Source: Hydrogenophilales bacterium (lineage in GTDB: Bacteria > Pseudomonadota > Gammaproteobacteria > Burkholderiales > Thiobacillaceae). From it: 64,000 nt of DNA. The stretch covers positions 3,282 to 67,281 of the forward strand of contig JAGXGP010000108.1 in NCBI GenBank assembly GCA_024636775.1, written 5' to 3'. This document shows, one piece after another, positions 1,012 to 23,858 of this stretch. The position numbers were made by a program, and so were the translations under genes. The number at the start of each line of letters is the position of its first letter. Positions within the stretch are counted from its first letter, which is position 1. The notes below the pieces were generated by a model. The model made no database searches, had not been told where the DNA came from, and was given only the letters and a program-made list of their open reading frames with translations.

Positions 1012-4000
1012 ATGCTCGGCCAATTCTCAGGTTTCTACAACAGTCTAGATGATGATCCGGCCAAGCGGGGCAAGCAATTCGAGCACTTCGTTAAATGGTT
1101 CCTGAAGACTGATCCTGAATGGTCAACACAAGTTGACCAAGTGTGGCTGTGGGAGGAGTGGCCGGAGCGCTGGGGCATGGATTGCGGGATTGATCTGGTG
1201 TTTCGGCACAAGAATGGTGAAAACTGGGCAGTGCAAGCCAAGTGCTATTCGCCCGATTACAACATCACCAAGCACGATGTGGATAAATTCCTCAGCGAAT
1301 CCAATCGAAAAGGCATACACAACCGTCTGCTGATTGCCACCACCGACCGCATCGGCAGCAACGCAAAGCAGGTCTGCGATGCACAAGAAAAACCCGTCAT
1401 ACGTTTTCTGCTCTCCGACTTTGAATGCTCCGCGCTGGACTATCCCGCCAACTTTGCCGCACTCTTGCAAGGTAAGCGCAAAGCCCGTCCCATGGCCCGC
1501 GATCACCAGAATGAGGCCATCACCGCCGTTGCAAAAGGACTGCAAGCCGAAGACCGTGGCCAGCTCATCATGGCCTGCGGCACAGGTAAAACTTACGTCA
1601 CTCTTTGGATCAAAGAGCATCTGGACGCGCAGCTCACTTTGGTGCTTGTCCCGTCATTGGGGCTGCTGTCCCAGCTTCTGCGCGAATGGACATTTGCCGC
1701 TGCCACCCCATTTGAAGTGCTGTGCGTCTGCTCGGATCAAACCGTCGGCACAAGAGGCAACGACGAAGCCATCCACAGCGTGACAGACTTGGCCTTTCCC
1801 GTTACCTCGGATGCCAACGAAGTAAAACGCTTTCTCAGCGGTGCAGGCAACCGCGTGGTTTTTTCTACCTACCAATCTTCCTCTGTAATCGCCGCAGCCC
1901 AATCTGACCCAGCCATCCCCGCATTCGATCTGGTCGTGGCGGACGAAGCCCACCGTTGTGCGGGCAAGGTCGGCAGCGACTTCACCGCCATCCTCGACAA
2001 CGCGCAAATACGCAGTGCCAAGCGGTTATTTGCCACCGCCACCCCCCGCACCTACTCTAGCAACGTCAAGAAAGCTGCCGAAGATCGCGGGGTCGAAGTA
2101 GTCGGCATGGATAACACCGCTCTGTTTGGCGGGGTGCTGTATGCCCTGCCGTTTGGTAAAGCCATCGAGAGCAAACTGCTCACCGATTACCGCGTCGTCA
2201 TCATCGGCGTCGACGACCCTACCATCGCGCAGTGGATCGCCAACCGCGAATGGGTCACTACCGGCACGGGAATCGAAACAGACAGCGAATCACTCGCAGC
2301 CCAGATCGGCCTGCTCAAAGCCGTCAAAGACTACGACCTCAAGCGCATCATCAGCTTCCATAGTCGCGTCAATCGCGCTGAATCCTTCACCTCCGACATC
2401 CGGCAAACCATGGCATGGGTCAGCGACGAACATCGCCCCAGTGGAACCCTGCGTACTGACTTCGTCTCCGGCAATATGCCCGCCAGCAAACGCAAGATCA
2501 AACTTGACCAACTCAAAGACCTGAGCTCGGACGAACGTGGTGTGCTGAGCAATGCGCGCTGCCTGTCAGAAGGCGTGGACGTACCCTCCCTCGATGGCGT
2601 GGCGTTCATTGACCCGCGCAGCAGCCAGGTGGACATCATCCAGGCTGTAGGCCGCGCTATACGTCGCAGTCCAGACAAAAAGATCGGCACCATTGTTCTA
2701 CCAGTGTTTATTGCCGCCAGGCAAAGTGCAGAAGACACCATTGAGACCAGTAATTTCAAACCTATCTGGGATGTGCTGAATGCTTTGAAAGCGCACGACG
2801 ATGTGCTGGCTTGTGAATTGGATGAAGTCAGGACGGAACTGGGGAGGAGACCGGGTGCAGGTGTCAGCGCAGGTGGGCTGGGCAAGATCGTGATTGATTT
2901 ACCAGCTACGGTGGATGCGAGTTTTGGTAGCGCGCTGCGCACTTATCTGGTTGAGAAAGTTACTGCTCCTTGGAGCTTCTGGTATGGGATGCTATTGGAA
3001 TATCAGAAACGTGAAGGGCATTGCTTCGTACCTGCTCGATATACAACGGCAGATGGTTATCGCCTTGGTCCGTGGGTAGGTCAACAGCGAATAACAAAGA
3101 ACAAAATGGCACTGGAACGCAAAAAACTACTAGAGGCTGTGCACAGCTGGAGTTGGGATACTTTGTCAGACAAATGGGATGAGGGATTTCACTATTTGGC
3201 AGAATACGCAAATCAGGAGGGGCATACAAAGGTACCCAAAGGTTACCAAACAGCAAATGGATATCGAGTTGGTGGTTGGGTAGGTTACCAACGTATTTGG
3301 TTTGAAAATCTATCGGCAGAACGAAAAGCCAAACTTGAAGCGTTACCCGGATGGAGTTGGAATACTTTATCGGACAAGTGGGAAGAAAGCTTCTGCCGAC
3401 TTAAGAAATTTGTTGAACGGGAGGGACATTCCAAGGTACTAGGCAATGTCAAATTGGCAGATGGTTTTCCGCTCGGAAAATGGGTGTTAAGGCAACGAAG
3501 AGTTAAAGGAGGCATGGCCCCGGAACGTATAACTCGGCTGGAAGAATTATCCGATTGGAGCTGGGATGTTCTCTCAGACAAGTGGGAAGAAAATTTTCGT
3601 CAACTCAACGAATTCGCAGAACATGAGGGGCATACCCAAGTCATACTGGATAACAAAACAGCAGATGGTTATCGACTCGACAGCTGGATACGCAGGCAAC
3701 GTGCAACAAAAGCCAGCCTATCCCAGAAACGTAAAGCGCTGCTCGAAGCATTGCCAGGTTGGAATTGGGATGTTCTTTCAGGCATGTGGGAAGAAGGCTT
3801 TCGTCATCTCAATGAATTCGTAGAACGTGAGGGACACGCCCAAGTTACATTGGATTACAAAACAGCAGATGGTTATCGACTTGGACTGTGGGTTGGCACT
3901 CAACGAAGAACAAGAGACAGCATGTTGCCGGTGCGTAAAGCCCGGCTTGAAAAATTATCCGATTGGAGCTGGGATGTTCTCTCAGACAAGTGGGAAGAAG

Positions 4001-4797
4001 GCTTTCGTCATCTCAACCAATTCGTAGAACGTGAGGGACATGCCCAGGTACCCCGCAATTTCAAAACGGTAGATGGTTATCACCTTGGACGGTGGGTTCG
4101 TCGCCAACACAACTCAACAAATTTATCTACTGAGCGGCAAGCCAGATTAGAAGCATTGTCCGGTTGGAAACTCAAACCTAATACAGATAAGTGGGAGGTG
4201 AGTTACAGCTATTTAACCGAATATGCTGCACGGGAAGGAAACGCTAAAGTTCCAAAAGCTTACAAACTAAACAATGGATATTCTCTTGGGGGATGGGTGC
4301 GAAGCCAGCGATCAAAAAGAGAGAATATGTCCTCGGAGAGGATAAATCGCTTGGAGGCATTACCCGGATGGTCTTGGGATACGTTGTCAGATATGTGGGA
4401 TGAAGGGTTACGATATTTAAAGGTATTTTCTGATCGTGAGGGGCACACCAAAGTTCGTCAAGATTACAAAGAAACAGATGAGTTTCGACTCGGCAGTTGG
4501 GTTCATACCCAAAAACAAGCAAAAGACAGAATGTCAGTGGAACGGAGGGCAAAATTGGAGTCGTTGCCTGGATGGAGTTGGATTGATAAATCTATGCAAT
4601 GGGATGAAGGGTTCAACTACCTTAGAGAATATGCAGATCGCGAGGGACATGCCAAGGTCACACAGCTTTTCAAAACAGCAGATGGATTCCTGCTCGGTAG
4701 ATGGGTAAATACTCAGCGAACTAAACAAATCAGCATGTTGCCGGAACGCAGAGCACGGCTGGAGGCTCTGCCGGGTTGGGTTTGGCGGGTTGAGTGA
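1012..4797 (+). CDS. Mrr-like restriction endonuclease + SF2 (DEAH) helicase + 9 helicase-associated (HA) repeats
   Basis: N-terminal FEHF..GIDLV..VQAK nuclease motif; Walker A MACGTGKT; DEAHR; motif VI QAVGRAIR; C-terminal WxEGF..L..F..REGH..V....DGY.LG.W...QR repeats. Confidence 0.9.
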   Translation: MLGQFSGFYNSLDDDPAKRGKQFEHFVKWFLKTDPEWSTQVDQVWLWEEWPERWGMDCGIDLVFRHKNGENWAVQAKCYSPDYNITKHDVDKFLSESNRKGIHNRLLIATTDRIGSNAKQVCDAQEKPVIRFLLSDFECSALDYPANFAALLQGKRKARPMARDHQNEAITAVAKGLQAEDRGQLIMACGTGKTYVTLWIKEHLDAQLTLVLVPSLGLLSQLLREWTFAAATPFEVLCVCSDQTVGTRGNDEAIHSVTDLAFPVTSDANEVKRFLSGAGNRVVFSTYQSSSVIAAAQSDPAIPAFDLVVADEAHRCAGKVGSDFTAILDNAQIRSAKRLFATATPRTYSSNVKKAAEDRGVEVVGMDNTALFGGVLYALPFGKAIESKLLTDYRVVIIGVDDPTIAQWIANREWVTTGTGIETDSESLAAQIGLLKAVKDYDLKRIISFHSRVNRAESFTSDIRQTMAWVSDEHRPSGTLRTDFVSGNMPASKRKIKLDQLKDLSSDERGVLSNARCLSEGVDVPSLDGVAFIDPRSSQVDIIQAVGRAIRRSPDKKIGTIVLPVFIAARQSAEDTIETSNFKPIWDVLNALKAHDDVLACELDEVRTELGRRPGAGVSAGGLGKIVIDLPATVDASFGSALRTYLVEKVTAPWSFWYGMLLEYQKREGHCFVPARYTTADGYRLGPWVGQQRITKNKMALERKKLLEAVHSWSWDTLSDKWDEGFHYLAEYANQEGHTKVPKGYQTANGYRVGGWVGYQRIWFENLSAERKAKLEALPGWSWNTLSDKWEESFCRLKKFVEREGHSKVLGNVKLADGFPLGKWVLRQRRVKGGMAPERITRLEELSDWSWDVLSDKWEENFRQLNEFAEHEGHTQVILDNKTADGYRLDSWIRRQRATKASLSQKRKALLEALPGWNWDVLSGMWEEGFRHLNEFVEREGHAQVTLDYKTADGYRLGLWVGTQRRTRDSMLPVRKARLEKLSDWSWDVLSDKWEEGFRHLNQFVEREGHAQVPRNFKTVDGYHLGRWVRRQHNSTNLSTERQARLEALSGWKLKPNTDKWEVSYSYLTEYAAREGNAKVPKAYKLNNGYSLGGWVRSQRSKRENMSSERINRLEALPGWSWDTLSDMWDEGLRYLKVFSDREGHTKVRQDYKETDEFRLGSWVHTQKQAKDRMSVERRAKLESLPGWSWIDKSMQWDEGFNYLREYADREGHAKVTQLFKTADGFLLGRWVNTQRTKQISMLPERRARLEALPGWVWRVE
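2971..4794 (+). repeat. Intragenic tandem array of nine ~204-bp (~68-aa) HA units
   Basis: Repeats visible in protein and DNA; 47-nt exact match between 3545-3591 and 3953-3999 (offset 408). Confidence 0.9.
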
Positions 4798-5176
4798 AAT
4801 CCAATCACGGTGCAATACGATTCGGCATCTTAGTAGGCGGACATTGATGTGTACCAGGTTGCGGGGGGCATGACTGACCGAAAAGGCCGGTTATGTGGAG
4901 CGCTACATAAGGCCGATGAGGCGACGGTCAACTCAAGCTTCGCCTTAGGCCGGTTCTCGGCCAAAGCCGTCGCGCACGGGCGTACTCGGAATTTTCTCTG
5001 GCGTCGGCTTTACGGATGCCTTTCCCAACAGCGGCTTCCTGTCACTACCTGCCGGTCACGACCGGAAGCTTCCCGGCAGTCAAGTCACTCTCTGCTATGA
5101 TTCCTCCGACACGCCCATTGCAGAGTAGGTCACGGTGACGCCAGTGCGCGCTAGAACATCCTAACCATGCGAAACT

Positions 5177-6496
5177 ATGCTACTGCTGCACATCTCTGAT
5201 ATTCACTTTCGTGCTCCTGAGTGCACGCAAGAGAATGACCCGAACCGGGCTTACCGCACGCGCATGATCCAGGACGCAAAAGCTCGGGCTCGCGCGTTAG
5301 GCGGCGTTGATGCAATCCTGGTCGGTGGTGATATCGCGTTTCGCGGCGTCCAGAGCGAATACACGGCTGCCTCGATGTGGCTCGAACAGTTAGCACGCGA
5401 GTCAGGGTGCCCCCTCGAACGCATCTTCGTCGTGCCGGGCAACCATGACATTGACAGAAGCCGCATCAGTGGAAGCCGTCAGATATGCAACATCCATAAG
5501 GCCATCAAGGACGCGACGCCCGCGTACCGCTATCGCGAATTGCAAGCCCAATTGGCCGAGGCTGCTACAGGCCGCGCACTGTTTGAGCCACTTGCTGCGT
5601 ACAACGAGTTTGCGGCCCGCTTCAACTGTCAGGTCTTTCACGAGCGGCTCGCGTGGAAGCAGGACCTTGTCTTGGCGCCGGGAATGACACTGCGTATCCA
5701 CGGATTCACCTCCACTTTGCTATCGGGAGCGGTGACCGAGGATGGTCAGAATGACAAGCAGCTTTCGCTCTACCTCAGCCCATGGCAAACCGCCCTGCTT
5801 GATCCCGACCCCAATATCGTGAACCTCGTGATGGCGCATCACCCACCTGACTGGCTCATGGACCAGGATGAAGTCGAGGATGCCGTCCATGGACGCGCTG
5901 CAATTCACTTGTGGGGTCACAAGCATCGGCAGCGGATCAACAAGGATGACCAGTACCTTCGCCTAGCTGCTGGCGCAGTCAATCCGGACGCCAGTGAGCC
6001 GGGGTGGCACCCAGCCTACAACCTTATCGAACTTTCCATTCAAGGGTTCGGGGCGGCACGCGCGCTGCACGTGAACGCACACCTCCTTGAATGGCAGACC
6101 AATCCAGAGCGTTACCGCGCCCGCCAAGACATCCAAGGTCGGGAAGTCTTCCAGCATTCGATCCTCTGTCCTGGCGACGACCACCCGACGACGCCCGCCA
6201 CCGGCCCTCCTGCGCCAAGTGCGGGACCGGCTTTAGTGGGCGCGACGGCGATTCCTGCACCTGCTCCTGATGTGGAGGCTGCTATGGGTGAAAAATACAC
6301 GCGTAATCTTGTCATTCGTTGGTGGGAATTGCCTATGGCCGCGCGCCGTGAAATCGCACTGCGCCTCGGCTTGATTTCTGAAGATGAAATCAGTCTACCT
6401 GAGCCCGAGCGATATGCGCGCGCCCTCATGCGGGCAAAGGAGCGCAATCAACTTGAACAAGTAGCTGAGGAGATCAACAAATGGCAGACGCAGTGA
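5177..6496 (+). CDS. Calcineurin-like metallophosphoesterase with small C-terminal helical adaptor domain (GAAD-like)
   Basis: DIH, GGD, PGNHD, HHP, GHKH motifs; Pro/Ala linker, then ~65-aa helical domain. Confidence 0.85.
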   Translation: MLLLHISDIHFRAPECTQENDPNRAYRTRMIQDAKARARALGGVDAILVGGDIAFRGVQSEYTAASMWLEQLARESGCPLERIFVVPGNHDIDRSRISGSRQICNIHKAIKDATPAYRYRELQAQLAEAATGRALFEPLAAYNEFAARFNCQVFHERLAWKQDLVLAPGMTLRIHGFTSTLLSGAVTEDGQNDKQLSLYLSPWQTALLDPDPNIVNLVMAHHPPDWLMDQDEVEDAVHGRAAIHLWGHKHRQRINKDDQYLRLAAGAVNPDASEPGWHPAYNLIELSIQGFGAARALHVNAHLLEWQTNPERYRARQDIQGREVFQHSILCPGDDHPTTPATGPPAPSAGPALVGATAIPAPAPDVEAAMGEKYTRNLVIRWWELPMAARREIALRLGLISEDEISLPEPERYARALMRAKERNQLEQVAEEINKWQTQ

Positions 6497-7584
6497 CAAA
6501 CGACAATGCCGAAGATGTAAAGCCAAGCCCATGGTTCTATGCATGGACAAAAGAGTTTCAACTCGGCGAAGGCAGCGAACTACTTAGCCAGCGTTGGCAA
6601 GCAATCAGCAGCTTTGCGGACACTGCCGAAGGCGCAGATGTCGAAGCCTTGGTACGCCTGGCAATAGGTAGCCGCCATGCGCCGTCATCTGACTGGCTTA
6701 CCAGCCTTGAAGAGTCCTTTCGCGAGGAATACCCTGCGTTCACTGTGAGCAGCAACGCACGCGAGTTGCAGGTGCTCTCGGCGTGCTGCCTCATACAGAT
6801 CAGTCAAGACCCAGAAAATGGCGCGGCCAATCTCGCGGCACTGGCCAGTGCCACCACCTCGGTCGCCGGGCAGCGCAAGTTCTCCTTACCCGGAGACTTG
6901 CCTCAAGTGGCCAACGAGGCGCTGCTATCGCTGTCCTTAAGTGTCGCGCGGCGCCCTAAGGTAGGGGCAGGGAGCCAATTCAAACAGTTGTTTGAAGCGG
7001 CTGTGCAACAGGCCAGAGCGCAACCGGATGTCGCCACTCTGATCGAGGCGATGGTGCTAGCTGGTAAAACGGTGACATCGGCTGTAAATAAGACGCAGCT
7101 GACCCTTCAAGCTCTGGCACAGCGGCTCGATCAGCAAGACGAAGAACTGCAGATGCTGTGGTGGTTGATCGGCGAGCACAGCGAGGATCTTGCTTGCAGT
7201 TTCGGTGACGTGCCCGACGCCGCGCGCCCTTTGGTGCTGGCCAAGGAGCTAGCTGACCATACGGTTCTGCCGCCCGGACCGCCCACAGTACGAGCCCTCC
7301 TGTCGCGGGCGAAGCTGGCAAGGCGTGGGAAAGTAGCATTGGTCGACGCAATAGCAGCCGCTCCGCTTGAGTGGCTGAAATCACACGTAGCTCCGGAAGG
7401 GGCGTCACCGGTTACGCAGCCGCTGCACTTCGCGGTCCTGCGTCAGCTGGAGACCGGCACAGGCAAGGCTTGGGTTGATGGCTGGGCAGCGACGACGGAT
7501 TTACCTGGGAATCTGTCCCTGCCGCCCTTGATACTCGCTGAGCTATTCTACCGCGAGCGCTTGCTCACGCGCCTGCTCGGGTGA
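6481..7584 (+). CDS. All-helical protein of GTPase-associated conflict system (GASH-like)
   Basis: Helical composition with a QDEELQMLWWLIG motif; overlaps both neighbours in the operon. Confidence 0.65.
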   Translation: MADAVTNDNAEDVKPSPWFYAWTKEFQLGEGSELLSQRWQAISSFADTAEGADVEALVRLAIGSRHAPSSDWLTSLEESFREEYPAFTVSSNARELQVLSACCLIQISQDPENGAANLAALASATTSVAGQRKFSLPGDLPQVANEALLSLSLSVARRPKVGAGSQFKQLFEAAVQQARAQPDVATLIEAMVLAGKTVTSAVNKTQLTLQALAQRLDQQDEELQMLWWLIGEHSEDLACSFGDVPDAARPLVLAKELADHTVLPPGPPTVRALLSRAKLARRGKVALVDAIAAAPLEWLKSHVAPEGASPVTQPLHFAVLRQLETGTGKAWVDGWAATTDLPGNLSLPPLILAELFYRERLLTRLLG

Positions 7585-8600
7585 GCATCATGGTCGACCC
7601 GAATCAAGTCATTCAATGCAGTAACCCGGACTGCAAGATCGCCGAAACCGGCCAGTGCGTTGAGGGCCTTGATCCTTCGGCATGCGGCAACTATGGCAAG
7701 CCGTTGCGGGTCATGGATATCGCACAGGAGGCGGAAGCTAGTTCAGGTCCAGAGATGGTGACGTTGCCGCACGCGAATCGCCTCGCGCCCGGTGAAGCAC
7801 GCGACCTGCTTCCGGAAGCCCGTACGCGCGTCATTGCGATTGTGGGGCCGCATGACTCAGGCAAGACAAGCCTAATCGCCAGCCTGTACGACCAGTTACA
7901 GGACGGGCCAATCGTGCCGTTTGCATTTCGCGGTTCACAAACCCTGCATGCCTTTGAACAAGCTTGTCATGATGCGCGAGCGGCATCCCAGCGCGGGACT
8001 CCGCACAGCGAGCGCACCAAGCGAGGCGAGGTGCGCTTCTTCCATCTTGGATTGCTGCATCAAGAGTCGTGCGAGGCACTGAGTCTGCTGCTCGGCGATC
8101 GGGCAGGAGAGGAGTATCGCGAGGCCGGCGATGACACGACATTGGCCGCGGAGTTCATCGAAGTCGAGCGGGCGGATGTTGTGACGCTCTTGGTTGACGG
8201 CAAGCGCTTGGCTCAAGATAGCCACCGGCATAATGCGCGTGAGGAACTGCTGCTGATTGTGCAATCGCTCAAGGATGCTGAGATCATCCCCAATGGTGCA
8301 CGCCTAGCCATAGTGCTGACCAAGTTTGATGCGGTGATGACTTCACCAAATGCAAAACGCGTGGAGGCTGATCTCGCGACAGCAGTTGCCCGCCTTAACG
8401 CGCATTTCGCTGATCGCTTTGCGAAGATTGAGGTCTTTCGCGTTGCCGCATCACCAACTGAACACGGGGTAGCGCGAGGCACCGGGGTCGCTGAATTGCT
8501 GAGCTTTTGGCTTGCAGACGTGTCGCCCACCTCTCTGCCGCATACATCGCAAGTATTGCCGGAGCGAGTCATCGCGCGTCTTGCGGAGGTTGGAGTCTAG
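7581..8600 (+). CDS. TRAFAC-class GTPase 1 with Cys-rich N-terminus
   Basis: G1 GPHDSGKTS, G3 DRAGE, G4 TKFD; N-terminal CxxxxC..C..C cluster. Confidence 0.8.
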   Translation: MSIMVDPNQVIQCSNPDCKIAETGQCVEGLDPSACGNYGKPLRVMDIAQEAEASSGPEMVTLPHANRLAPGEARDLLPEARTRVIAIVGPHDSGKTSLIASLYDQLQDGPIVPFAFRGSQTLHAFEQACHDARAASQRGTPHSERTKRGEVRFFHLGLLHQESCEALSLLLGDRAGEEYREAGDDTTLAAEFIEVERADVVTLLVDGKRLAQDSHRHNAREELLLIVQSLKDAEIIPNGARLAIVLTKFDAVMTSPNAKRVEADLATAVARLNAHFADRFAKIEVFRVAASPTEHGVARGTGVAELLSFWLADVSPTSLPHTSQVLPERVIARLAEVGV

Positions 8601-8602
8601 CC

Positions 8603-9466
8603 ATGACGAAGCGATCCATAGTGGTTCTAGGCCTTCCTGGGAGTGGGAAGACAACCTTCTTGGCGGCGCTGTGGCACCTCGTTTTCAGTCGTGAAACCGA
8701 GACCAAGTTGCGCTTTGGCAGTTTGAAGAGCGGCAACCTCAAGCATTTGAATGCCATAGCAGCACGATGGCGAAATGCACAGTTGCAAGAGCGAACCCTG
8801 CTATCGGGCAATCAGTTCGTCAGTATTAACTTGGTGACGGATGCCCCCCAGGCGGTCACCGTCACGTTCCCGGACATCGCCGGGGAGTCATACCGACAGA
8901 TGTGGGAAGAGCGCGAGTGCGAGAAGGTGGTAGCCGATACGCTGTCGCAAGGCAGCGTGCTGCTCTTCGTGCACGCAGACGACATCAAGCGTCCGCTGTG
9001 GATCGTAGATGTCGCCGCCATGGCGCGCGCTCTGGACTTGCCGGCTGACGAGGCTGCACAGCCTGTTCCGTGGAAGCCGAGCCTAGCGCCTACACAGGTG
9101 CAATTGGTTGGGCTGCTCAGCCTCCTTGGCGAGGCACCGCTGAATATTGGGCCGCGACGCCTTGTTGTCATGCTGTCAGCATGGGACAAAGCGAAGGGTG
9201 AGCGTCTGGCGCCACGTGAATTTCTTCGCGCGAAACTCCCCCTGCTCTCACAGTACCTGAACACGAATCCGAAGCTCTGGCAGTGGACGGTTTACGGTGT
9301 TAGCGCGCAGGGTGGTGAATACGACGATACGCAGCCCGGAGCTCAACTGAAGCAAGAAGCGCAGGACCTCCGCGCGGCTGACGAACCGTCGAGGCGCATT
9401 GAGCTGACGGATGGCGTCAGCACGTCCCACGACCTCACCGTTCCCCTTGCGTGGTTGATGCAGTGA
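8603..9466 (+). CDS. TRAFAC-class GTPase 2 (paralogue)
   Basis: G1 GLPGSGKTT, G3 DIAGE, G4-like SAWD, G5 VSA; ATG 2 bp after the GTPase 1 stop. Confidence 0.8.
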   Translation: MTKRSIVVLGLPGSGKTTFLAALWHLVFSRETETKLRFGSLKSGNLKHLNAIAARWRNAQLQERTLLSGNQFVSINLVTDAPQAVTVTFPDIAGESYRQMWEERECEKVVADTLSQGSVLLFVHADDIKRPLWIVDVAAMARALDLPADEAAQPVPWKPSLAPTQVQLVGLLSLLGEAPLNIGPRRLVVMLSAWDKAKGERLAPREFLRAKLPLLSQYLNTNPKLWQWTVYGVSAQGGEYDDTQPGAQLKQEAQDLRAADEPSRRIELTDGVSTSHDLTVPLAWLMQ

Positions 9467-11556
9467 TGGCGCGGCAGAGGATCGTCATACGACAGGCGGT
9501 TCACGGCTATGTCGAAGGACACCGGGAGTTGTGGAACTCTGCTCAGCTGAAGCAGCGGGACAGCAAGACCGTTCTCATATACAGCGACACATCAAGCTCG
9601 GGACTGCCGATTGGTGAAGGAGGCTATCTGACTGGCTACCCACTACCGGAGTCTGGCTACTACGCGTTGGCCCGCACTTGGCCAGCGCCCGAAATGCAGC
9701 GTCCCGGCGCAGTGTGGACCCATACGCTTTTCATTGAGTTCGCCGACGTTGCCAGGCTACGTGATGCGACAACCTTGTTGGCGCTATTCCGGCGCCCTGA
9801 GGCCACGTCGGGCTCAAAGAGTGAATCGAGCCGAGAAGATGTACTTGAACTCTCCGTCACTGAATCAGAACCACTCGACTTCGCTACGGAAAGCGATGAG
9901 ATCTGGTATCGGCAACTGCTCGTTGCTCTATATGGGTCACCGGATGCGAAGGCCGTCGCTGTCTGCGGTAGTGACGACGCGGCCCGCATTGAACGCAATG
10001 TGTTGACGTTCTGGTCACAGCAATGGCCGCGTCTGCGCCGCGCGATGCGATTCTGCACACTAACAACTGCCGATCGCTCGGCCCCAAAGAGCGTCTTTGA
10101 CCTGCAAATAGTTCCGGATTCCGAGCGCGGAGTTCGCAGCAAGTTTCCCTCCGCGACGTTTGCCCAAGACATAACAGTAGTCGCGGCCGATTGGCTTGAT
10201 CATCTTGTTCTTGACTCGAAGAAGCCAGGGGAGTCGGGATTACGCGATTTTCTGCAGCAAGCCGGAGCTGACCTTACAACAGGACGGCGTGCATTCGTTC
10301 CGCTAACGCGCTTGCACATGGCTCTGACCAATCGCACCTCTAGCCGCGATACGTGGAACGAAGCGCTGAGCTTGGTGCGCGAGGTATCGAGTGGGGAGCC
10401 GTCAACTGCCGCCCAACTGGTGCTCACAGCGGCCATTGGCAATGCCTCAAATCTCGATGCGCCGAGCCTAGAGTTCGCGCTGAGCAACCTCACACTTGTT
10501 GACCGGCAGCAGCTGGTCGCGAACGCGGGTGCGCTTGGTGTCGCCGTATGGCGCTTCGCGCCGCTCCGTCTGGCGCAACTCTGGGAGTCTGGCGGGCTGG
10601 GTCGTGAGGTCGCGAGTTCCGGACTGGATGCGATTGAGCCGGACGCGTTGCTTGAAGGCCTACCGGTCACAGGAGAGTTTGCCGATACTGCATTCAAACT
10701 GCGCCCTGAACTACTCACGAGCGCTGCGATTTGGCGTGCCGATCCAGCGCTCGCAACGCGAGCCATCCGCACAGCGGCGCGCAACGTCGAGATTGCGCCA
10801 CGCGCGCTCGATCAACTGATCGCCTCACAGTCAACTGAGTTGATACCGACCGCATTCGAGGCTTTTGGGAATGAGAATGTTTGGCGGCATCTCGCTACAG
10901 CTTTGACTTCGCGAGAGCAACATGCGCCTGCATTGCTTGATTGGCTACAGGCTGGAATGAAGTATCCGGGAACGGTTGCGCAAGTATTGGCATCTACGCG
11001 CGGTCTGGATCGATCGGCACTGGCGGCTATCGCACGCGCGAGTCATCCCGATCTCGTGCCAAACGATTTCGGCGATGACCCTTGGGTGATTGCAGTCCAA
11101 CCGACCGATGCTGGCGTGATTCCAGACGATGACGCATACCTTTTCAGCTACTTGCTGGCGCGCGCCTTCGGAGTGCGATCGCGGAACATTGTTGGGCTGG
11201 TAGAACTCGCCCTCAATGCTGTCAGTTTGGCAGCGGCGACGAATGTGCTAACCCAAAGCGCATGGCAATTACTTGCGCCTCATCTTCCGGAATCGCATGA
11301 CTGGCAATCTTGGGATCGCTACCAACGTTTGCTTGCCGGAGTTGGCCAGCTATATGTTCGGAAAAACCTTGCAGTCGATTCGTTCGGGCGCCTTGGACGC
11401 GACACTTCCGATTTCAATTGCATTGTGTCGGCTGCTGCCAAGGAATGGGGCGGACGTGGGTACCTGCGGGGTGTGAGGCGGGAGTTCAAGAGCTCCCATG
11501 ACTTTTCTAGTCAAAGGCGTCGCATTATCGAAGACGCGATTGGCTCGTGGTTCTAG
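9466..11556 (+). CDS. GTPase-associated protein 1 (GAP1-N1/M/C-like)
   Basis: QAVHGY..GH; YLTGYPL; ARTWPAPEMQRPGAVWTHTL; WSQQWPRLRR motifs; TGATG coupling to GTPase 2. Confidence 0.75.
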   Translation: MARQRIVIRQAVHGYVEGHRELWNSAQLKQRDSKTVLIYSDTSSSGLPIGEGGYLTGYPLPESGYYALARTWPAPEMQRPGAVWTHTLFIEFADVARLRDATTLLALFRRPEATSGSKSESSREDVLELSVTESEPLDFATESDEIWYRQLLVALYGSPDAKAVAVCGSDDAARIERNVLTFWSQQWPRLRRAMRFCTLTTADRSAPKSVFDLQIVPDSERGVRSKFPSATFAQDITVVAADWLDHLVLDSKKPGESGLRDFLQQAGADLTTGRRAFVPLTRLHMALTNRTSSRDTWNEALSLVREVSSGEPSTAAQLVLTAAIGNASNLDAPSLEFALSNLTLVDRQQLVANAGALGVAVWRFAPLRLAQLWESGGLGREVASSGLDAIEPDALLEGLPVTGEFADTAFKLRPELLTSAAIWRADPALATRAIRTAARNVEIAPRALDQLIASQSTELIPTAFEAFGNENVWRHLATALTSREQHAPALLDWLQAGMKYPGTVAQVLASTRGLDRSALAAIARASHPDLVPNDFGDDPWVIAVQPTDAGVIPDDDAYLFSYLLARAFGVRSRNIVGLVELALNAVSLAAATNVLTQSAWQLLAPHLPESHDWQSWDRYQRLLAGVGQLYVRKNLAVDSFGRLGRDTSDFNCIVSAAAKEWGGRGYLRGVRREFKSSHDFSSQRRRIIEDAIGSWF

Positions 11557-11724
11557 GGTCCAAAGAAAATAGCTGTTGCGATAAACACATACTGTGGCAA
11601 TTACAGCCGCAATTCTTCCGCGCAAGAGTACTTGCATAGAGGCAACCTCGACAGGAGCCGGTCGGCAAAAAGTTCCGAATGACAGCTTCCAAGCGACAAC
11701 GCCGAGCTCGCGACCGGCCGCTCT

Positions 11725-11756
11725 GGGTCGCTATGTATAGCTTTACATAGCGACCC
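11725..11756. repeat. Perfect 13-bp inverted repeat
   Basis: GGGTCGCTATGTA-tagctt-TACATAGCGACCC. Confidence 0.85.
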
Positions 11757-11830
11757 GTTGCAGCCATACGAAGCTCGGCCTGACCTACGTCTGAAATCAG
11801 CGGTAGAACCGCCATCCAAACATTAGAGGC

Positions 11831-11980
11831 GGATGCCGGGTCATCGGCCATTGCGGCGGCCGGTGGCGTCGCCCCATCTGAATGACCGGTGTCGCGCAGG
11901 TTGCCGACGTTTAGGGATTTCGCTGCCGAATGGCCGCTTTCGTCAGCAGCGAAAGACGGCAGCCGACCCAAAGCAGAGAC
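11831..11980 (+). repeat. Left copy of ~150-bp composite inverted repeat (three ~30-bp boxes)
   Basis: 11955-11977 matches the reverse complement of 17007-17029 at 22/23; 11881-11911 matches the reverse complement of 17074-17104 at 26/31; spacing is conserved. Confidence 0.75.
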
Positions 11981-11995
11981 TCACGGCCAATCCGG

Positions 11996-14962
11996 CTATT
12001 TGCCGCTGCGCTGCCGGTTCAGCGCCAGCAGGCGGCGCAGGATGACTTCGTCCTCCCATTGCGGGGTGTAATCATTCCAGCCGTAGGCTGTGGCTACGGC
12101 TTTGTCCAGGGTTTCATGCGCGAGAGCAAGCCACGACGGACGATGGTTGTAAAGGTTGGTGAGGGTGCGCTTTTTCAGCTCAGCCTCGTGACCGAGCTTG
12201 GCAACTGGACGCGTGGGGAACCCGGCAGCTTGTTCTTCGGGGGTGATGAGCCAGTCCGTCCATTCGGGCGGGTTCAGGTAGTGGTCGCGCAGCTTGATGA
12301 GCTCTTGTGCTGCAGTGGCGATGGCCTTGGCTTTCTCGTTGCCTTCGTATTTCGTCGCAGGGATGTCGGGCGTCAGGCCGTCTGGAAACGGGAAGGTTTC
12401 AAAGCAAGTTGTGTGTGTATAGCGAGGGTCATTGCCAACCCCCAGGCTCGTGCCGCGCCTTAACGCCCAAACCTCATGTATTCGAGACTGAAGCACTCCA
12501 ATGGTGGTGTCGTCATCACGGGCGACGACGACAAGTGCATCGCCGGGAGTAACAGCAGCCGATGTCCATGCGCAGAGATGGTGCTTTGATACTCGCGTGA
12601 TGGCGATGTAGCGTGATAGTCCGTGGAGGGCCATGAACATCTCTGGGCGAGGCCAAGCGAACTGCCACCACGGATACTTCTGGAAATCGTTGAAGCGGTC
12701 CGTATGCGGTCGATGCAAGCGCACATTCGAGATGGCTGCAAACGGCTTCTCAAACATGACGGCAGCCTTTTCATCGCGGCCTACAAAATTGACAATGAAC
12801 CTGTCGAGTGGGCGTGTCGTGATGTCATCCGTAATCAGATAGGGTCGAACAACTGCCGCCATTGGCTCCCCGTTCATTGTGGCTGGTTCCTGCAGTATTT
12901 TTCGAGCTACGCTCCCTTCCAAGTTAAAGCTGGCATCAGGCAAGCCAAGCTCTTCACGCAGCTTCCTCTTGACGGCCGCCGAAGGCGTCACACCCTGGAA
13001 TGACTTGTTAAGGTTTTCCCGCATTTTTGATGCTTTTGTCACATCAATGTCTGCAGTCAGGTCTGCGTGAATGACCGCGACCTCAAGTCCGTCCAGTTGT
13101 GGCTTCATGGCACTTTGTCCAAAGCCCGTCATAGACACGCGCACTGCAGCGCCGTTGTCCCACCATTCTTCATCGCTCCACGCAAGGAAAATGCGCGACT
13201 TCTCCAAGATGCGGCTGAGGACCTCGCGGTTCGCTCCGCCGCGTATGGAGTTGGTCGAAACCAACCCTGCTGCTTGCAATTGGCCCGCTTCCATCTGCAT
13301 CCGAGCTTTCTCAAACCAGAAGCAAACAAAGTCTGCACCGTCAAGACTGTTATCTCGATAGGCCAAGCGCACTGTATCCACATAGACATCGCCCAACTCA
13401 CCGCGCATCTTCTTGTTGCCGATAAAAGGTGGATTACCGACTATCACATCCGCCTTGGGCCACTGGGCTTGGCTGCCATCAGAGTTCACCAGCGCATCAC
13501 GGTGTTCGACGCCATCCAGTGGCTTGAGAATCGGGTTGCTTGCGTGTCGCCAGCCGTTCTGCCTGCACCACTGGATGTCGCCAATCCACACCGTGACCCG
13601 CGCCAGTTCTGCCGCGAACTCGTTGATTTCCAGGCCGAGTATGTTGTGCGGGCCGGTATGCAATTCCGTCTCGGCTTGAAGGCCCAGTTCCTGTGCCTCG
13701 ACCTGCGCGCGTTTTTCAACATCGCGCAGAGCCTTGAGCGCCAGATAAAGAAAGTTGCCGCTACCGCAAGCCGGGTCAAGCACGCGAAACTTGTTGAGAT
13801 GCAAAAGAAACCCGGTATAGCGCTTGTTAGCATCGTTCATCGCCCTGGTGCTCGCGGTCTTTGCGGCGGTGAGCTTGCGCTCCATTTCCTTCTTTGCTTG
13901 TGCGGTAGCTTTCACATCTAAGGCAGCGGCTTTCGCCTCGTCGAAGGCTCCAGCCTTGACTATGCACTTAGCAATTTTTTCGTGCGTCGCTTGCCATTCG
14001 GCCAGCAGCGGCTCACGCACCAGCGGATCGACAAGCTTTGCAATAGTGCCGGTGTCGGTGTAATGAGCGCCGAGCGCAGCGCGCTTTTTTCCAAGCCCTC
14101 GCTCAAACAGCGTGCCGAAAATGGTGGGGTCAATTGCACGCCAGTCCATATCGGCAGAGGCTGCACGCAGAGTTTCAAGGTCGCTGGCTGTCAGCACAGG
14201 GACGGCAATCTGCCTAAACAGGCCGCCATTGAACCATTCGATGTCGTCATTACCATAAACGCCTCGTGGTTTCTGCATGGCGTTGAACAGCGCGGCAATG
14301 CGATTGGCGGCCTTAGCTACGTCGCTTTTGGCGCTGGCAAGCAGGCCTGTGAAAATTCTCTCGGGCAACAGCCCTTCGTCTTCGGCAAACATGCAGAACA
14401 GGCATTGCACGAGGAAGTGCGCCACTCGGTTGCTGTCTTCCCCACGCTGGCGCATGGCATCGGCCAAGCCGGCAAAGCGCCTGGCCGCCTCTTCGGTGAC
14501 GGCGGCGGTGGATTTTTCGGGACGTAGCTTCAGCGGGTCGGTGAACACCCATTTGAGTCTTTGCCGTTTGCTGTCATCCACCAATTCTTCGATGCGGATT
14601 TCGCACGGTTCGTCGGGGTACCCGGTGAAGGCAGTGTGGATGATGATGCGCTCGCGGTCGCACACCACCAAGAGCGGCGGACTTTCGAGTTGCAGGGCGT
14701 AGTCTGTGAGTTGCTTGAGGGCTTTGTCCAGGTCACGGCCGGGCTTCTTATTTTCCCACGCGAAAAAGCCGCGCTTCCACACATCGGCCCAGCCATCGCC
14801 CCCGCCGGATTTCTTTGCGCCACGCTCGAAACAGTAATTGTTGGGGTCGCGCGGCTTATCAACGCCGAGCAGCTCGCACAGATCATCAAAATGTGCCTGC
14901 GCCCCGGCACGTTCAGTGAGTTTGTTGGATTGCCAGATTGTGATGAATTGGGCGGGCGTCAT
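11996..14962 (-). CDS. MmeI-like Type IIG/IIL restriction-modification enzyme (nuclease-N6A MTase-TRD)
   Basis: ADVWK..WENK nuclease motif; IFGTLFE; GAHYT; DPACGSGNF; GNPPF; C-terminal RYTHTTCFETFPFP and TLTNLYN. Confidence 0.85.
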   Translation of the reverse strand: MTPAQFITIWQSNKLTERAGAQAHFDDLCELLGVDKPRDPNNYCFERGAKKSGGGDGWADVWKRGFFAWENKKPGRDLDKALKQLTDYALQLESPPLLVVCDRERIIIHTAFTGYPDEPCEIRIEELVDDSKRQRLKWVFTDPLKLRPEKSTAAVTEEAARRFAGLADAMRQRGEDSNRVAHFLVQCLFCMFAEDEGLLPERIFTGLLASAKSDVAKAANRIAALFNAMQKPRGVYGNDDIEWFNGGLFRQIAVPVLTASDLETLRAASADMDWRAIDPTIFGTLFERGLGKKRAALGAHYTDTGTIAKLVDPLVREPLLAEWQATHEKIAKCIVKAGAFDEAKAAALDVKATAQAKKEMERKLTAAKTASTRAMNDANKRYTGFLLHLNKFRVLDPACGSGNFLYLALKALRDVEKRAQVEAQELGLQAETELHTGPHNILGLEINEFAAELARVTVWIGDIQWCRQNGWRHASNPILKPLDGVEHRDALVNSDGSQAQWPKADVIVGNPPFIGNKKMRGELGDVYVDTVRLAYRDNSLDGADFVCFWFEKARMQMEAGQLQAAGLVSTNSIRGGANREVLSRILEKSRIFLAWSDEEWWDNGAAVRVSMTGFGQSAMKPQLDGLEVAVIHADLTADIDVTKASKMRENLNKSFQGVTPSAAVKRKLREELGLPDASFNLEGSVARKILQEPATMNGEPMAAVVRPYLITDDITTRPLDRFIVNFVGRDEKAAVMFEKPFAAISNVRLHRPHTDRFNDFQKYPWWQFAWPRPEMFMALHGLSRYIAITRVSKHHLCAWTSAAVTPGDALVVVARDDDTTIGVLQSRIHEVWALRRGTSLGVGNDPRYTHTTCFETFPFPDGLTPDIPATKYEGNEKAKAIATAAQELIKLRDHYLNPPEWTDWLITPEEQAAGFPTRPVAKLGHEAELKKRTLTNLYNHRPSWLALAHETLDKAVATAYGWNDYTPQWEDEVILRRLLALNRQRSGK

Positions 14963-15204
14963 GGAGTTTTTAGAACTACATAGATATGCAGTAAATGGGT
15001 GGTGCGACGAAGGCTAACACTGAATCACACTGGGTTTTAACTCGCCACAGAAGTTCGACAGTTACCATTCGTTTGGTGGCAACCGGCTATTGGCGGACGT
15101 TGGCTCGCGACAGCTTTCAGGCTGGCAAGTGGATCAGGGATGGCTGTAGCCTTGGCACACCGTTGGGGCTTGCGTTTGAACTGGCTGAACATGTCTGCTG
15201 CTGA

Positions 15205-16863
15205 TTAAACGCCATATCTGCTGACCCGGATAGCGTTCAACAAACTCGTGGCTTTGATGCGCTCGAGCGCCTCCTTTGCCTTGGCCGTGATTTCAGCGTG
15301 CTCGCTGTCCGCCCACCGCAGCGACCACTTGATTAGGTTCGACAACTTGACGTCATCGTGCTCCTTCAGAAACATGGCATGGTACTCATCGACAGATGCT
15401 TTCATCATTGCTTCTAGGTGCTCAGGGTTGTAGCTGCTGTTCTTGGCTATAAAAATGACTGCCTCTTCCAACCCGGGTAGCTGCTTGAGTCCAGAGTGAA
15501 CGGTGTCGAAAGTGGCGCGCAGCTTGGTGTCGTCGATCGATCCGCCAAAAGGGTGTTCCTTCAAATCGAAAGTCGATGGCTTGGCTTTATTCGCGTGGAC
15601 GAACTTGTCGATCAGACTGTCGGCAAGGTCGTCTCGGTTTAGATCACGCAGCAACCGGACGGTGCCGTTGAGATCGTTGCTGCTGATGTGGGCTATCGCG
15701 TGGAGCGCGGTGTCATAAAGCTCCACGATGAACGCGTCCTGGTCGTCCGAGAACGAGTTATGGAAACGACGCCAAACCGTCGTGAAAGGCACGAGCATCT
15801 CGTTGCTGCGCAGCTCCTCGTTCAACTTCTTGGCAACTTCGACAAACCCGGTACCTTCGACGTAGCCGCGTTCGACGATACGAGCGATGGCCAAATCAAG
15901 GTCATCGACGTGTATGAAGCCGAAGGCCTTCAGCCGCTGCACCCAAGCCAAGGTCACAGAATCTTGCTCGGCTTCCTTTTTGAATGAGAGTAGGGCCTTG
16001 TTCCAGTTCTCGATGTCCTCAATCTTCGGCTTCGACACGTCGGGGGCATACGCGCACCAGCACAGCAATACGGTGGTCGCAATGGACGCCTCGATCACGT
16101 TGGAGTGCAAGCCCCCCATGGTCGCCACGATTCGCGTGATCAACTGATGCAGCTTGCGCAGGATCCGCACGTTCGTGATGCCAAGATCGACGACATGACG
16201 CAAGACGAGATCGCGATTTGGGAAAGTGGCATCAAACACGAGGTCGAAAGCCTCTTGAACCGTCGGTGCGTACAGCACCTCGAAGTCAATCGCTTTCTCG
16301 CGGTAGGCGCGGTATGCATCCTTTGCGCCGAGCTGTTCGGCATTGAAAATCAGGGCGACTTTGCAGCCGCGTTCCTCGCTCAACTCGGTGATCAGTCCCA
16401 GCACGTCCTCCGCCTTGATTGTGGTCTGGCGCTCGAAGTCGTCAAAGCACACCAAGGTGTCGCGGACAGCGCTGGGAGCTAGCGCTTCCAGGCCCAGCGA
16501 GACGCTGCTGCCATGAGGCAAGCTTTTCATCATCGAGCCAAATCGCTCGTACTGCCCTTTTAACCAGTCCTTTGCGATCGAGTTCCAGTGCTCGTTAATT
16601 GTGTCTAAGTCGAGCTTCTTACCGAGGGTGACCACCGCGACCGACTTGGTGAACAGCGACATCCGCAACTCGGCCATGCTATTGATGCCGAAGAGACTGA
16701 CATAGCAGTATTGTTTGAATTTGATGCCGTCCTTGTGAGCCAGCAGCGCCTCGCGCCAAGCGTAGGTTTTGCCGGTGCCCCAAGCTCCCGTCAGCGCTAG
16801 GACATTCGTTTCCGCGTTGCTCAGAAAGTCTTTTAATACCGCCTTGGTGATCTGTACGCTCAT
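15205..16863 (-). CDS. KAP-family-like P-loop NTPase
   Basis: Walker A GAWGTGKT, YVSLFG, Walker B CFDDFER, YREKAID, NVRIL. Confidence 0.8.
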   Translation of the reverse strand: MSVQITKAVLKDFLSNAETNVLALTGAWGTGKTYAWREALLAHKDGIKFKQYCYVSLFGINSMAELRMSLFTKSVAVVTLGKKLDLDTINEHWNSIAKDWLKGQYERFGSMMKSLPHGSSVSLGLEALAPSAVRDTLVCFDDFERQTTIKAEDVLGLITELSEERGCKVALIFNAEQLGAKDAYRAYREKAIDFEVLYAPTVQEAFDLVFDATFPNRDLVLRHVVDLGITNVRILRKLHQLITRIVATMGGLHSNVIEASIATTVLLCWCAYAPDVSKPKIEDIENWNKALLSFKKEAEQDSVTLAWVQRLKAFGFIHVDDLDLAIARIVERGYVEGTGFVEVAKKLNEELRSNEMLVPFTTVWRRFHNSFSDDQDAFIVELYDTALHAIAHISSNDLNGTVRLLRDLNRDDLADSLIDKFVHANKAKPSTFDLKEHPFGGSIDDTKLRATFDTVHSGLKQLPGLEEAVIFIAKNSSYNPEHLEAMMKASVDEYHAMFLKEHDDVKLSNLIKWSLRWADSEHAEITAKAKEALERIKATSLLNAIRVSRYGV

Positions 16864-17000
16864 CCCGCCCCCTATTTCTTGTTACGAATTGAAGGATACA
16901 GGGTTGACGAGGCTGGAAGGTGACGCGCTGCACGGGCAGCAATGGGTTCGGTCAGACCACGATATTGAGCGTCCGCTTGAAGGTACTTCAGCGAGTTCGG

Positions 17001-17150
17001 GCTGCATCTGCTTTGGGTCGGGTGCCGTCCCTCGCCGGTGACCAAATCTGCCGCTCAGGCAGAGTACCGCGTCAACGGCAGCAACCAGCGCGACTCCGGC
17101 CATTGGTTTTGGTTAGCGCCACCGGCAGCAATGGCCGACAAGCGGTCTCC
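17001..17150 (-). repeat. Right copy of ~150-bp composite inverted repeat
   Basis: Three boxes are reverse-complementary to those at 11831-11980; 16-nt and 43/44-nt spacers conserved. Confidence 0.75.
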
Positions 17151-17835: not shown

Positions 17836-18069
17836 ATGGGTAAAACACGAATCATGATCGATCAGATACGCGAACAGAAACGCCGTCGGCAAGCAAACAA
17901 AATCAGTGTCGAATTGACCGCCTCTGGCCGCAATGCCCCACCGGCTGACTCAAACTTGGAAGAGTGGGTTCCTGTGGTGGATATAGACTCAAACAAGACA
18001 ATCTGGTTTCCCAAGGATTTGTACAACGAGTACCAACGGTTGCGCTTTTCAGATGCAGGTGAACCATAA
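17836..18069 (+). CDS. Hypothetical protein (77 aa)
   Basis: ORF with protein-like composition; no recognisable family. Confidence 0.35.
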   Translation: MGKTRIMIDQIREQKRRRQANKISVELTASGRNAPPADSNLEEWVPVVDIDSNKTIWFPKDLYNEYQRLRFSDAGEP

Positions 18070-18186: not shown

Positions 18187-18262
18187 GGGGGCATAGCTCA
18201 GCTGGGAGAGCGTCTGGTTCGCAATCAGAAGGTCGGGAGTTCGATCCTCCCTGTCTCCACCA
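18187..18262 (+). tRNA. tRNA-Ala (anticodon CGC)
   Basis: 76-nt cloverleaf; acceptor GGGGGCA/TGTCTCC with G3-U70; anticodon loop TTCGCAA; TTCGATC T-loop; encoded CCA. Confidence 0.95.
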
Positions 18263-23765: not shown

Positions 23766-23858
23766 TATCTTTGCCAACTCTTTCAGGGTGTGGCAATATT
23801 GTGGCAAATAATCATATGTTAAGCAATTAACATTGATTTATATGCCTATGTTTTTACA

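Follow-up and report, generated by a model that had tools for sequence, protein, structure and literature searches.

E1 at a Defense-Rich Locus

The window analyzed here, i.e., the whole stretch of 64,000 nt taken from contig JAGXGP010000108.1 (assembly GCA_024636775.1), belongs to a Thiobacillus genome of 2.8 Mb, split into 159 contigs and 87% complete. As shown in Table 1, Pfam and PADLOC scans located four defense-type modules in this window, with copies of a noncoding element of about 130 nt, which we call E1, in their spacers. From its arrangement here and in related genomes, E1 appears to be the sequence that terminates hitch-hiking mobile cassettes of an as yet undescribed family. In what follows, G numbers denote the Thiobacillus genomes compared (61 in the set), with G000 standing for the genome of the window, and L numbers denote loci or metagenome contigs.

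Table 1. Features of the window, with positions counted from its first nucleotide
Feature	Position	Strand	Description and method
Mrr-helicase-HA gene	1012-4797	+	Pfam/PADLOC scans
E1 terminus fragment (16 nt), TCGGCCAAAGCCGTCG	4957-4972	+	In the spacer before the GTPase-associated operon; 16-nt position matrix, 16.4 bits
Five-gene GTPase-associated operon	5177-11556	+	Metallophosphatase-GAAD, GASH, DO-GTPase2, DO-GTPase1, and GAP1-N1 proteins; Pfam/PADLOC scans
Palindrome GGGTCGCTATGTA-N6-TACATAGCGACCC	11716-11765		Left of the E2 start and overlapping it; arms hold the GGGTCG/CGACCC junction motif; repeat search
E2 repeat block (~105 nt)	11751-11843	+	Abuts E1-A; starts with CGACCCGTTGCAG
E1-bounded cassette (5295 bp)	11844-17138		Contains the MmeI-like restriction-modification (R-M) gene and the PDC-S49 gene; no transposase gene; Pfam/PADLOC
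E1 copy A (E1-A)	11844-11977	+	Runs from the TCGGCCATT terminus (11844) to the inner end ...CGACCCAAAG (11977); BLAST and profile matches
MmeI-like type IIG R-M gene	11996-14962	-	Pfam/PADLOC scans
Module breakpoint, MmeI-like gene/PDC-S49 gene	15075-15084		Homology to G055 ends at 15075; homology to G071 starts at 15084
PDC-S49 gene	15205-16863	-	Pfam/PADLOC scans
Inner junction motif GACCCAAAGCAGA	17007-17019	-	Common to the E1-less PDC-S49 locus of G071
E1 copy B (E1-B)	17007-17138	-	Terminus TCGGCC (GGCCGA on the + strand) ends at 17138, facing outward; repeat search, BLAST, and profile
tRNA-Ala	18187-18262		Rfam match

A repeat search of the window returned a 46-nt inverted match between 11932-11977 and 17007-17052, which whole-genome BLAST lengthened to the ~130-nt element, with two further copies on contig C141. 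The two full copies in the window (n = 2 by BLAST and profile) are 73% identical to each other and inverted. When 23 copies were aligned, the element proved to have sharp edges, with TCGGCCATT at one end and CGACCC at the other, and to contain four boxes of 9 bp (AAYGNCMGN) whose orientation alternates. About 27 copies were also compared in pairs; homology ended 0-8 nt from both edges in almost every pair, and the homology of E1-A to some 25 other copies stopped at both of its edges, implying that E1 is independent of both flanks. The subtypes are very divergent (50-90% identity); E1-B represents a second subtype, with nearer relatives (88-93% identity) in G050, G076, G062, and G049.

E1 is not a coding fragment: well-conserved copies differ by single-base indels, meaning that the element is noncoding, and their variation has no 3-nt periodicity. 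A structured RNA was likewise rejected. Single-sequence folds were no better than those of shuffled controls (z ~ -1.2), and the RNAalifold consensus amounted to -5.1 kcal/mol with a covariation term of -0.04, i.e., no conserved hairpin. Rfam 15, at its gathering score, matched only the tRNA-Ala in the window, with nothing below E = 1 in 11500-12100.

A preliminary description of this DNA, made from the sequence alone, had presented ~30-bp quasi-palindromic boxes, noticed only in the spacers between the four defense modules and not in the housekeeping part of the window, as the repeat family. When its consensus (AAYGDCNGS-N12-14-SCNGHCRTT) was scored by script across the entire window, full matches (18/18) were obtained only at 11881-11911 and 17074-17104; the other seven of the nine listed boxes failed, and 17/18 matches also occurred in the housekeeping part of the window (43914, 47496, and 62326). 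The two full matches are a homologous sub-segment of E1. The repetition itself was real, but the 30-bp palindrome had to be abandoned as the repeat unit, its consensus being satisfied by two of nine boxes, both parts of the ~130-nt element. The boxes had caught the eye because E1 contains its four alternating 9-bp boxes. As for their placement, a full E1 copy is found in just two of the four spacers, and outside the window the confinement to spacers between defense modules fails.

Indeed, the spacers 4798-5176 and 14963-15204 contained no E1 according to the 23-copy profile. The former does hold the terminus fragment listed in Table 1, which falls within one of the earlier boxes (4945-4974) and for which 0.005 occurrences would be expected in this spacer, the genome-wide rate being 0.0125 per kb. 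In the latter, the 16-nt terminus matrix gave nothing significant, the putative box at 15072-15101 included. A weak match to the E1 terminus (15.1 bits with a gapless 26-nt matrix) was also noted at 17915-17940 on the - strand, inside a small open reading frame (ORF) between E1-B and the tRNA-Ala gene; it could be a decayed E1 end or a chance similarity.

To the left of E1-A lies a second repeat, E2, copies of which (89-95% identity) are present in G002, G010 (two), G011 (three), and G043, some followed by E1 and some without it. These copies finish in GGGTCATCGGCC, extending 6-14 nt into the E1 terminus, and the companion blocks E2 and E3 have junction motifs in common with E1. Palindromes of the TTATGT/TACATA type, at 4880-4916 (TTATGTGGAGCGCTACATAA) and 11716-11765, also adjoin E1-type junction motifs.

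Paired Copies and Their Cargo

The paired layout seen in the window was examined in 135 distinct copies from genus and metagenome loci, considering neighbors within 12 kb after de-duplication; the collections were sampled. Seventeen pairs had the (+,-) arrangement, with TCGGCC termini outward and a spacing of 1.1-7.9 kb. Only three were (-,+), with a spacing of 41-700 nt, and we read these as the ends of adjacent units lying back to back. By our own arithmetic from copy numbers, uniform placement would yield about 3.8 pairs within 12 kb, as compared with the 17 or more observed. Two metagenome contigs (L156 and L195) displayed nested +,+,-,- layouts. Among truncated copies, at least 13 kept the outer half vs about 5 otherwise.

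The (+,-) units enclose very different genes. Besides the MmeI-like R-M and PDC-S49 genes of the window, the cargo includes a Cap4-nuclease-domain gene in G072, AAA_21-DUF4435 and Schlafen-AlbA_2 genes in L229, and a DEAD helicase with a PLD protein within the outer pair of nested copies in L195, whose inner unit carries an α/β hydrolase. The unit of G050 contains two unknown ORFs, with ThsB adjoining, between two direct copies. Other units carry a GMC oxidoreductase (L178), a desuccinylase and a porin (L163), GNAT acetyltransferases (G051), or nitroreductase, EamA, LysR, and cyclase genes (G012). Finally, in G002, G024, and G074 the cargo consists of a small secreted-protein gene (termed cl4), followed by PepSY, DUF2271, flavoprotein reductase, and ApbE genes.

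None of the cargo genes scanned encoded a transposase domain, with the sole exception of a truncated integrase fragment in L143. Inverted end copies framing transposase-less passenger genes are the hallmark of a mobile insertion cassette (MIC). When the neighbor and cargo proteins were compared all against all by BLASTP, no protein common to the cassettes emerged; three ~560-aa proteins found beside E1 ends turned out to be mutually unrelated, and a shared cassette protein was discarded as the candidate enzyme. The E1 family is not defense-specific: defense genes are common cargo, far from exclusive. Defense cargo is frequent, but metabolic cargo occurs equally often.

Homology Breakpoints between Genomes

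Comparisons between genomes were informative as to where the similarity of these modules ends. Two species, G002 and G024, share a 5.3-kb segment at 99.1% identity; its end coincides exactly with the TCGGCC terminus, and the outer flanks differ. This five-gene periplasmic module (L143 1040-6314; L141 8202-2929) encodes a small secreted protein, PepSY, DUF2271, a PepSY_TM-flavodoxin reductase, and ApbE. Similarly, beside pgi and at the junction distinguishing G071 from G073, core-gene homology ends at the TCGGCC terminus or within a few nucleotides of it. Beside the GGDEF-EAL gene and the queA tRNA, homology ends about 60-110 nt short of E1.

Inner ends behave in a comparable way. The PDC-S49 segment of the window (15084-17019) is 95% identical to G071, and the identity enters the inner end of E1-B by 12 nt and then ends; the same inner-end stop was observed at the cl4 loci. 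In G071, the PDC-S49 gene has a 17-nt remnant of the E1 terminus on either side, in inverted orientation (GGGTCRTCGGCCRAAGC). The PDC-S49 gene is 95-97% identical to that of G071, another Thiobacillus species, and its protein is 85% identical to one from a Comamonadaceae metagenome-assembled genome (MAG) and 75% to one from Cupriavidus sp. YR651 (L055-L057). Sequence identity points to PDC-S49 being a recently horizontally spread single-gene module.

The 5' part of the MmeI-like gene (13961-15075) is shared with G055 at 88% identity. Judging from where the two homologies meet, 15075-15084 is a true module junction without detectable E1. The window cassette as one transferred unit was not found elsewhere, its two genes differing in their nearest relatives. 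The proposal that the boxes coincide with module breakpoints thus fared unevenly: homology between genomes does break at E1 edges, but the breakpoint at 15075-15084 has no E1.

The cl4 loci displayed further rearrangements. Upstream of the cl4 gene, five species have four or five very different E1 subtypes of ~130 nt, and the same junction motifs, ...TTYGGGTCG and ...WTGGCCGA, delimit all of them. Furthermore, the cl4 module of G024 is inverted, relative to a shared 290-aa flank gene, with respect to G071 and G074.

Distribution and Neighbors of E1

For a census of the genus, a covariance model based on sequence alone was constructed from 29 members representing all subtypes; it detected E1 in 49 of the 61 Thiobacillus genomes, at 1-10 copies each. 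G000 has about 9-10 family members, and G014, G050, G070, and G074 are likewise in the range of 8-10 copies; no copy was found in G003, G019, G063, or the complete genome G020. The exact 22-nt E1 terminus occurred in 81 metagenome contigs. Outside the genus, 1 of 400 other genomes of the class had an E1 copy. One full copy lies on the megaplasmid of Acidithiobacillus caldus SM-1 (L081 8048-8173; NC_015851.1 54084-54209), where it coincides in part with an ORF annotated as a 41-aa "hypothetical protein" (WP_264318542.1); this ORF call is probably spurious, the repeat being noncoding.

Elsewhere in G000, the copies adjoin pgi, a Crp-type regulator, ArsR-rhodanese, AsmA, an EgtB-like/aminotransferase pair, and a P4-type integrase. 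Neighbors in other genomes are LysR, queA plus tRNA, a GGDEF-EAL gene, ankyrin, SoxA, photolyase, allophanate hydrolase, PepSY, HipA, glmS, cobW, and a LuxR-type response regulator. By our own tally, 19 of 25 copies are located downstream of a co-oriented gene or tRNA; single copies were found, for example, 91 nt past glmS and 60 nt from a tRNA 3' end. For about half of the copies, a co-oriented gene begins 80-270 nt downstream.

E1 itself is interrupted in two genomes. In G023 (L024 ~8127-8135), an rve-type transposase gene abuts the E1 inner end, with the cut between ..CCGAC and TGCGGATTCA, and in G062 (L052 ~7988-8001) a gene for a 574-aa reverse transcriptase abuts it, with the cut between ..CCGA and TTGCGAATTCA. 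The nearly identical position of the two cuts suggests an insertion hot spot within E1.

Other repeat families were encountered in the same regions. A 164-nt repeat (L025 14121-14285) recurs in at least nine Thiobacillus genomes with 90-96% identity, and the same island holds a 150-nt inverted pair (L025 9464-9614 and 10585-10736). A unit of ~390 nt (L124 5789-6175, i.e., G000:C79), which overlaps the start of a 117-aa ORF without a Pfam match, is found at 80-91% identity in at least 10 genomes, often near E1; in G055:C1 it occurs at 2948677-2949029 and 2953903-2954238, beside an MmeI-like homologue.

E1 as the Possible End of Cassettes Moved in Trans

These data could be accommodated if E1 acted in cis as the end sequence of small, transposase-less gene cassettes forming a family that spans Thiobacillus. 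A cassette would consist of 1-8 kb of arbitrary cargo between two inverted E1 elements of ~130 bp, with TCGGCC facing outward and CGACCC toward the cargo. The four alternating 9-bp boxes, together with the terminal ~60 nt, would represent putative sites at which a trans-acting transposase or recombinase, encoded elsewhere, binds; this enzyme might move, invert, or exchange the cassettes. Defense genes would then be over-represented simply as typical accessory cargo.

We give about an even chance to this explanation, in which E1 copies terminate cargo cassettes that lack a transposase and are moved in trans. Cassette ends of this kind are the best fit to the data, in which the same end faces outward, the cargo (1-8 kb) is unrelated from unit to unit, units may be nested, truncated copies mostly keep their outer half, and blocks of identity stop at the terminus. 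In addition, inverted pairs with a fixed outward end, nesting, and outer-half truncations mean that transposon-like ends fit no worse than recombination sites, and we rate the probability of E1 being a transposon-type end as equal to, or higher than, that of its being a recombination site.

Several observations weigh against this assignment. At 16 complete pairs, the longest direct repeat that could be taken as a target-site duplication was 2 nt; the window cassette (flanks ...gggtca and caagcg...) has none. No empty site was recovered around the queA-tRNA, GGDEF-EAL, pgi, G071 PDC-S49, or G014 units, the searches showing replacement of everything past the terminus and never a clean filled/empty pair. 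Among the 135 copies of the sampled collections, none of the E1 pairs contains a gene for a transposase or recombinase, as an autonomous partner should. The two ends of one cassette are often of different subtypes, and cl4 is joined to four or five subtypes across species; such mosaicism resembles site exchange more closely than it does the movement of a transposon end together with its cargo. Moreover, 12 neighboring pairs are in the same orientation, and the parts of the window cassette were acquired separately (PDC-S49 resembling G071 at 95% identity, and the MmeI 5' part resembling G055 at 88%). Finally, MAG assemblies break at repeats, making counts of E1 pairs incomplete, and the genomes are mutually related. 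Palindromic targets were not found either, flank symmetry being 6.4/14 vs 5.6/14 in controls.

Comparable arrangements have been described. In MICs, such as MIC231 of Bacillus cereus and mic-qnrS2, and in TIME-COMP elements, transposase-less passengers of varied cargo lie within inverted transposon-type ends and are presumed to be moved in trans (PMC5444012, PMC6542083, PMC13367494). E1 pairs resemble these elements in framing varied passengers, devoid of transposases, in inverted orientation. However, the ends of MICs and TIMEs are 20-40 bp inverted repeats of a known insertion sequence (IS) or Tn3 partner and generate target-site duplications, whereas E1 ends are ~130 bp long and contain four boxes in alternating orientation, the ends of one cassette often differ in subtype, duplications are not seen, and E1 has no known partner element.

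Possible Site-Specific Exchange

A different explanation, which we consider rather unlikely, is site-specific recombination. In this case, E1 or its 6-13-nt cores (TCGGCC, CGACCC) would be the targets of a host-encoded recombinase that exchanges or inverts modules in an XerCD/dif-like manner, amounting to shuffling instead of transposition. The mosaicism at cl4 speaks for such exchange, with the cl4 region joined to E1 subtypes A, C, D, and E depending on the species and the far flank differing too; so does the inversion of the cl4 module in G024. Breakpoints fall within short motifs that both partners possess: in the G002/G024 case, GGCCGA is on the cargo side, in the G071/G073 case it is on the flank side, and GGGTC is shared at the PDC-S49/G071 breakpoint. 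Both inverted and direct pairs occur, terminus-only fragments are found at junctions lacking the E1 body, and target-site duplications are absent, all as recombination sites would allow.

Against it, no recombinase is linked to E1. The element is present in complete genomes that lack IntI (G007, G009) and absent from the complete, IntI-bearing G020. For recombination sites, the copies are long and divergent, with no obvious core-spacer-core organization, and no dif-like AT-rich XerC/D motif was visible in E1 by eye. Furthermore, transposon ends would be expected to give both the 17:3 orientation bias and the nested pairs.

A related proposal is that E1 and the junction cores are the sites of an undescribed chromosomal recombination system acting in trans, neither integron nor Xer, that exchanges, inverts, and nests Thiobacillus modules, many of them anti-phage. 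This appears doubtful to us. The preliminary description had advanced something similar, namely a non-integron site system through which a trans-acting recombinase would capture or shuffle defense modules. Of this, the position at module boundaries holds up and so does the need for an enzyme in trans, as the framed modules encode no recombinase or transposase of their own. Defense specificity and a linked recombinase do not: no co-occurrence with a specific recombinase was found, and the integrase gene at 22635-23807 has no E1 copy adjoining it.

The known system most akin to such exchange is that of the plasmid dif (pdif) modules of Acinetobacter, i.e., accessory units (toxin-antitoxin, resistance) bounded by oppositely oriented sites, served by a host enzyme in trans and also used as target sites by IS elements (PMC6449649, PMC13141974, PMC10132070). 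Like pdif sites, E1 copies bound discrete accessory modules in opposite orientation, and insertions occur at the E1 inner end. By contrast, pdif sites are plasmid-borne XerC/XerD sites of 28 bp and known sequence, whereas E1 measures 130 nt, is GC-rich and chromosomal, and has no recombinase linked to it; here the comparison to dif was made by eye.

Passive Repeats as an Alternative

It is also possible, although again improbable, that E1, E2, and E3 are passive dispersed repeats, i.e., selfish or neutral sequences of the miniature inverted-repeat transposable element (MITE), REP/BIME, or NIME type that gather in tolerant sites, such as gene 3' ends and variable islands, and play no role in gene movement. 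E1 is indeed low in copy number and strictly intergenic, with many lone copies beside housekeeping genes, and its modular companions E2 and E3 have the same junction motifs. The interruption of the E1 inner end at near-identical positions by an IS (rve) in G023 and a reverse-transcriptase gene in G062 also speaks for this explanation. The islands contain several other repeat families, and the clustering of E1 pairs (17 or more vs ~3.8) could merely reflect these islands. However, passive repeats would not predict the 17:3 outward bias, the different spacing of (+,-) and (-,+) pairs (1-8 kb vs 41-700 nt), the nesting, or a block of 99% identity that ends exactly at the terminus.

Specific repeat classes also match poorly. 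E1 is not a classical MITE, as its ends (TCGGCC.../...CGACCC) are not mutual inverted repeats and no duplications flank it. REP sequences and REPINs resemble E1 in their short boxes of alternating orientation and their intergenic position at gene 3' ends. Unlike E1, however, they occur at copy numbers tens of times higher and depend on RAYT genes; a REP/RAYT origin was rejected, considering the 1-10 E1 copies per genome and the lack of any PF01797 match in G000 (87% complete), and E1 has neither a conserved hairpin nor the symmetry of REP doublets. The preliminary description had named dispersed REP or MITE copies without defense enrichment as the outcome that would overturn it; the REP/RAYT and MITE features are missing, but defense specificity nevertheless fails.

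In NIMEs (Neisseria RS blocks bounded by dRS3), and in BIME and BOX elements, modular intergenic blocks are joined via short junction motifs, vary between strains, and receive insertions of mobile elements. E1 differs from all of these in having no sequence similarity to them, in its far lower copy number (1-10 per genome), and in forming consistent inverted pairs around gene cargo.

Regulatory Sequences, attC Sites, and Other Candidates

A role as cis-regulatory DNA or small RNA (3' untranslated region stabilizer, operator cluster, or promoter module) is very unlikely. It would agree with the orientation bias relative to the upstream gene, with the co-oriented gene that begins shortly downstream of about half of the copies, and with the four conserved 9-bp boxes, which resemble protein-binding sites. 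However, the folding results given above argue against an RNA, there is no Rfam family and no U-tract terminator, the neighbor genes are functionally unrelated, and the subtypes diverge far faster than their flanks.

Least credible of all is the idea that E1 copies are unusual integron attC sites or an integrase-less attC cluster, even though an integron integrase scoring above the TIGR02249 cut-off is encoded by G000 (C67:5825-6763, 394 bits vs a cut-off of 265) and 40/61 Thiobacillus genomes and E1 resembles integron cassettes in that a gene is followed by a noncoding site of 60-140 nt with ends better conserved than the middle, in the frequent defense cargo, and in a recombinase that would be encoded elsewhere: the E1 ends (TCGGCCATT..., ...CGACCC) lack the R'' (RYYYAAC) and R' (GTTRRRY) boxes, the copies have no conserved hairpin and are mostly inverted, E1 is present in genomes in which no IntI was found, the E1 profile gave no match in ~20-kb regions beside the integrase genes of G055, G020, G071, and G049, and next to the G055 integrase (L100, G055:C1:1241000-1260999) there is instead a ~10-kb cassette array with canonical attC sites (GCCTAAC...GTTAGGC, 60-85 nt). 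The intI gene of G000 lies at a contig end, in the variable region between pgi and the queA tRNA. On this point, and in stating that the boxes are not CRISPR repeats, the preliminary description was right; the repeat search of the window revealed no array of regularly spaced 24-48-nt direct repeats with unique spacers, and E1 copies are kilobases apart and inverted.

Tn7-like ends were discarded as well. These are associated with tnsABC/tniQ and have TGT...ACA termini and 5-bp duplications, none of which E1 matches, though one copy does lie downstream of glmS: its termini are TCGGCC, no duplication is seen, no E1 was found within ~10 kb of the TniQ/TnsA genes in the E1-rich genomes G062, G076, and G045, and neither TniQ nor TnsA was found in G000. 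A phage or plasmid origin was also rejected, with no phage match and A. caldus as the single plasmid match. Literature searches for the E1 terminal sequence gave chance matches only, and those on Thiobacillus intergenic repeats returned nothing relevant in titles and abstracts.

Significance

Recognition of E1 is helpful for annotation. On the A. caldus megaplasmid, the element is now labelled as a 41-aa hypothetical protein. E1 also breaks metagenome assemblies, and many copies are located at contig ends.

Should E1 and its junction cores prove to be the sites of a chromosomal recombination system, the reading that we hold doubtful, they would constitute a chromosomal counterpart of the Acinetobacter dif-module system, based on a new kind of 130-bp multi-box site. 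If, as we favor, E1 forms the ends of cassettes moved in trans, it would provide a simple marker sequence by which small mobile units could be delimited in Thiobacillus, an environmentally important genus of sulfur oxidizers. Such units would carry metabolic genes as well as defense genes (type IIG R-M, PDC-S49, Cap4-type nuclease, OLD-like ATPases). An enzyme acting on long multi-box ends without target duplications would also be indicated, and that enzyme, be it a transposase or a recombinase, would be the real discovery.

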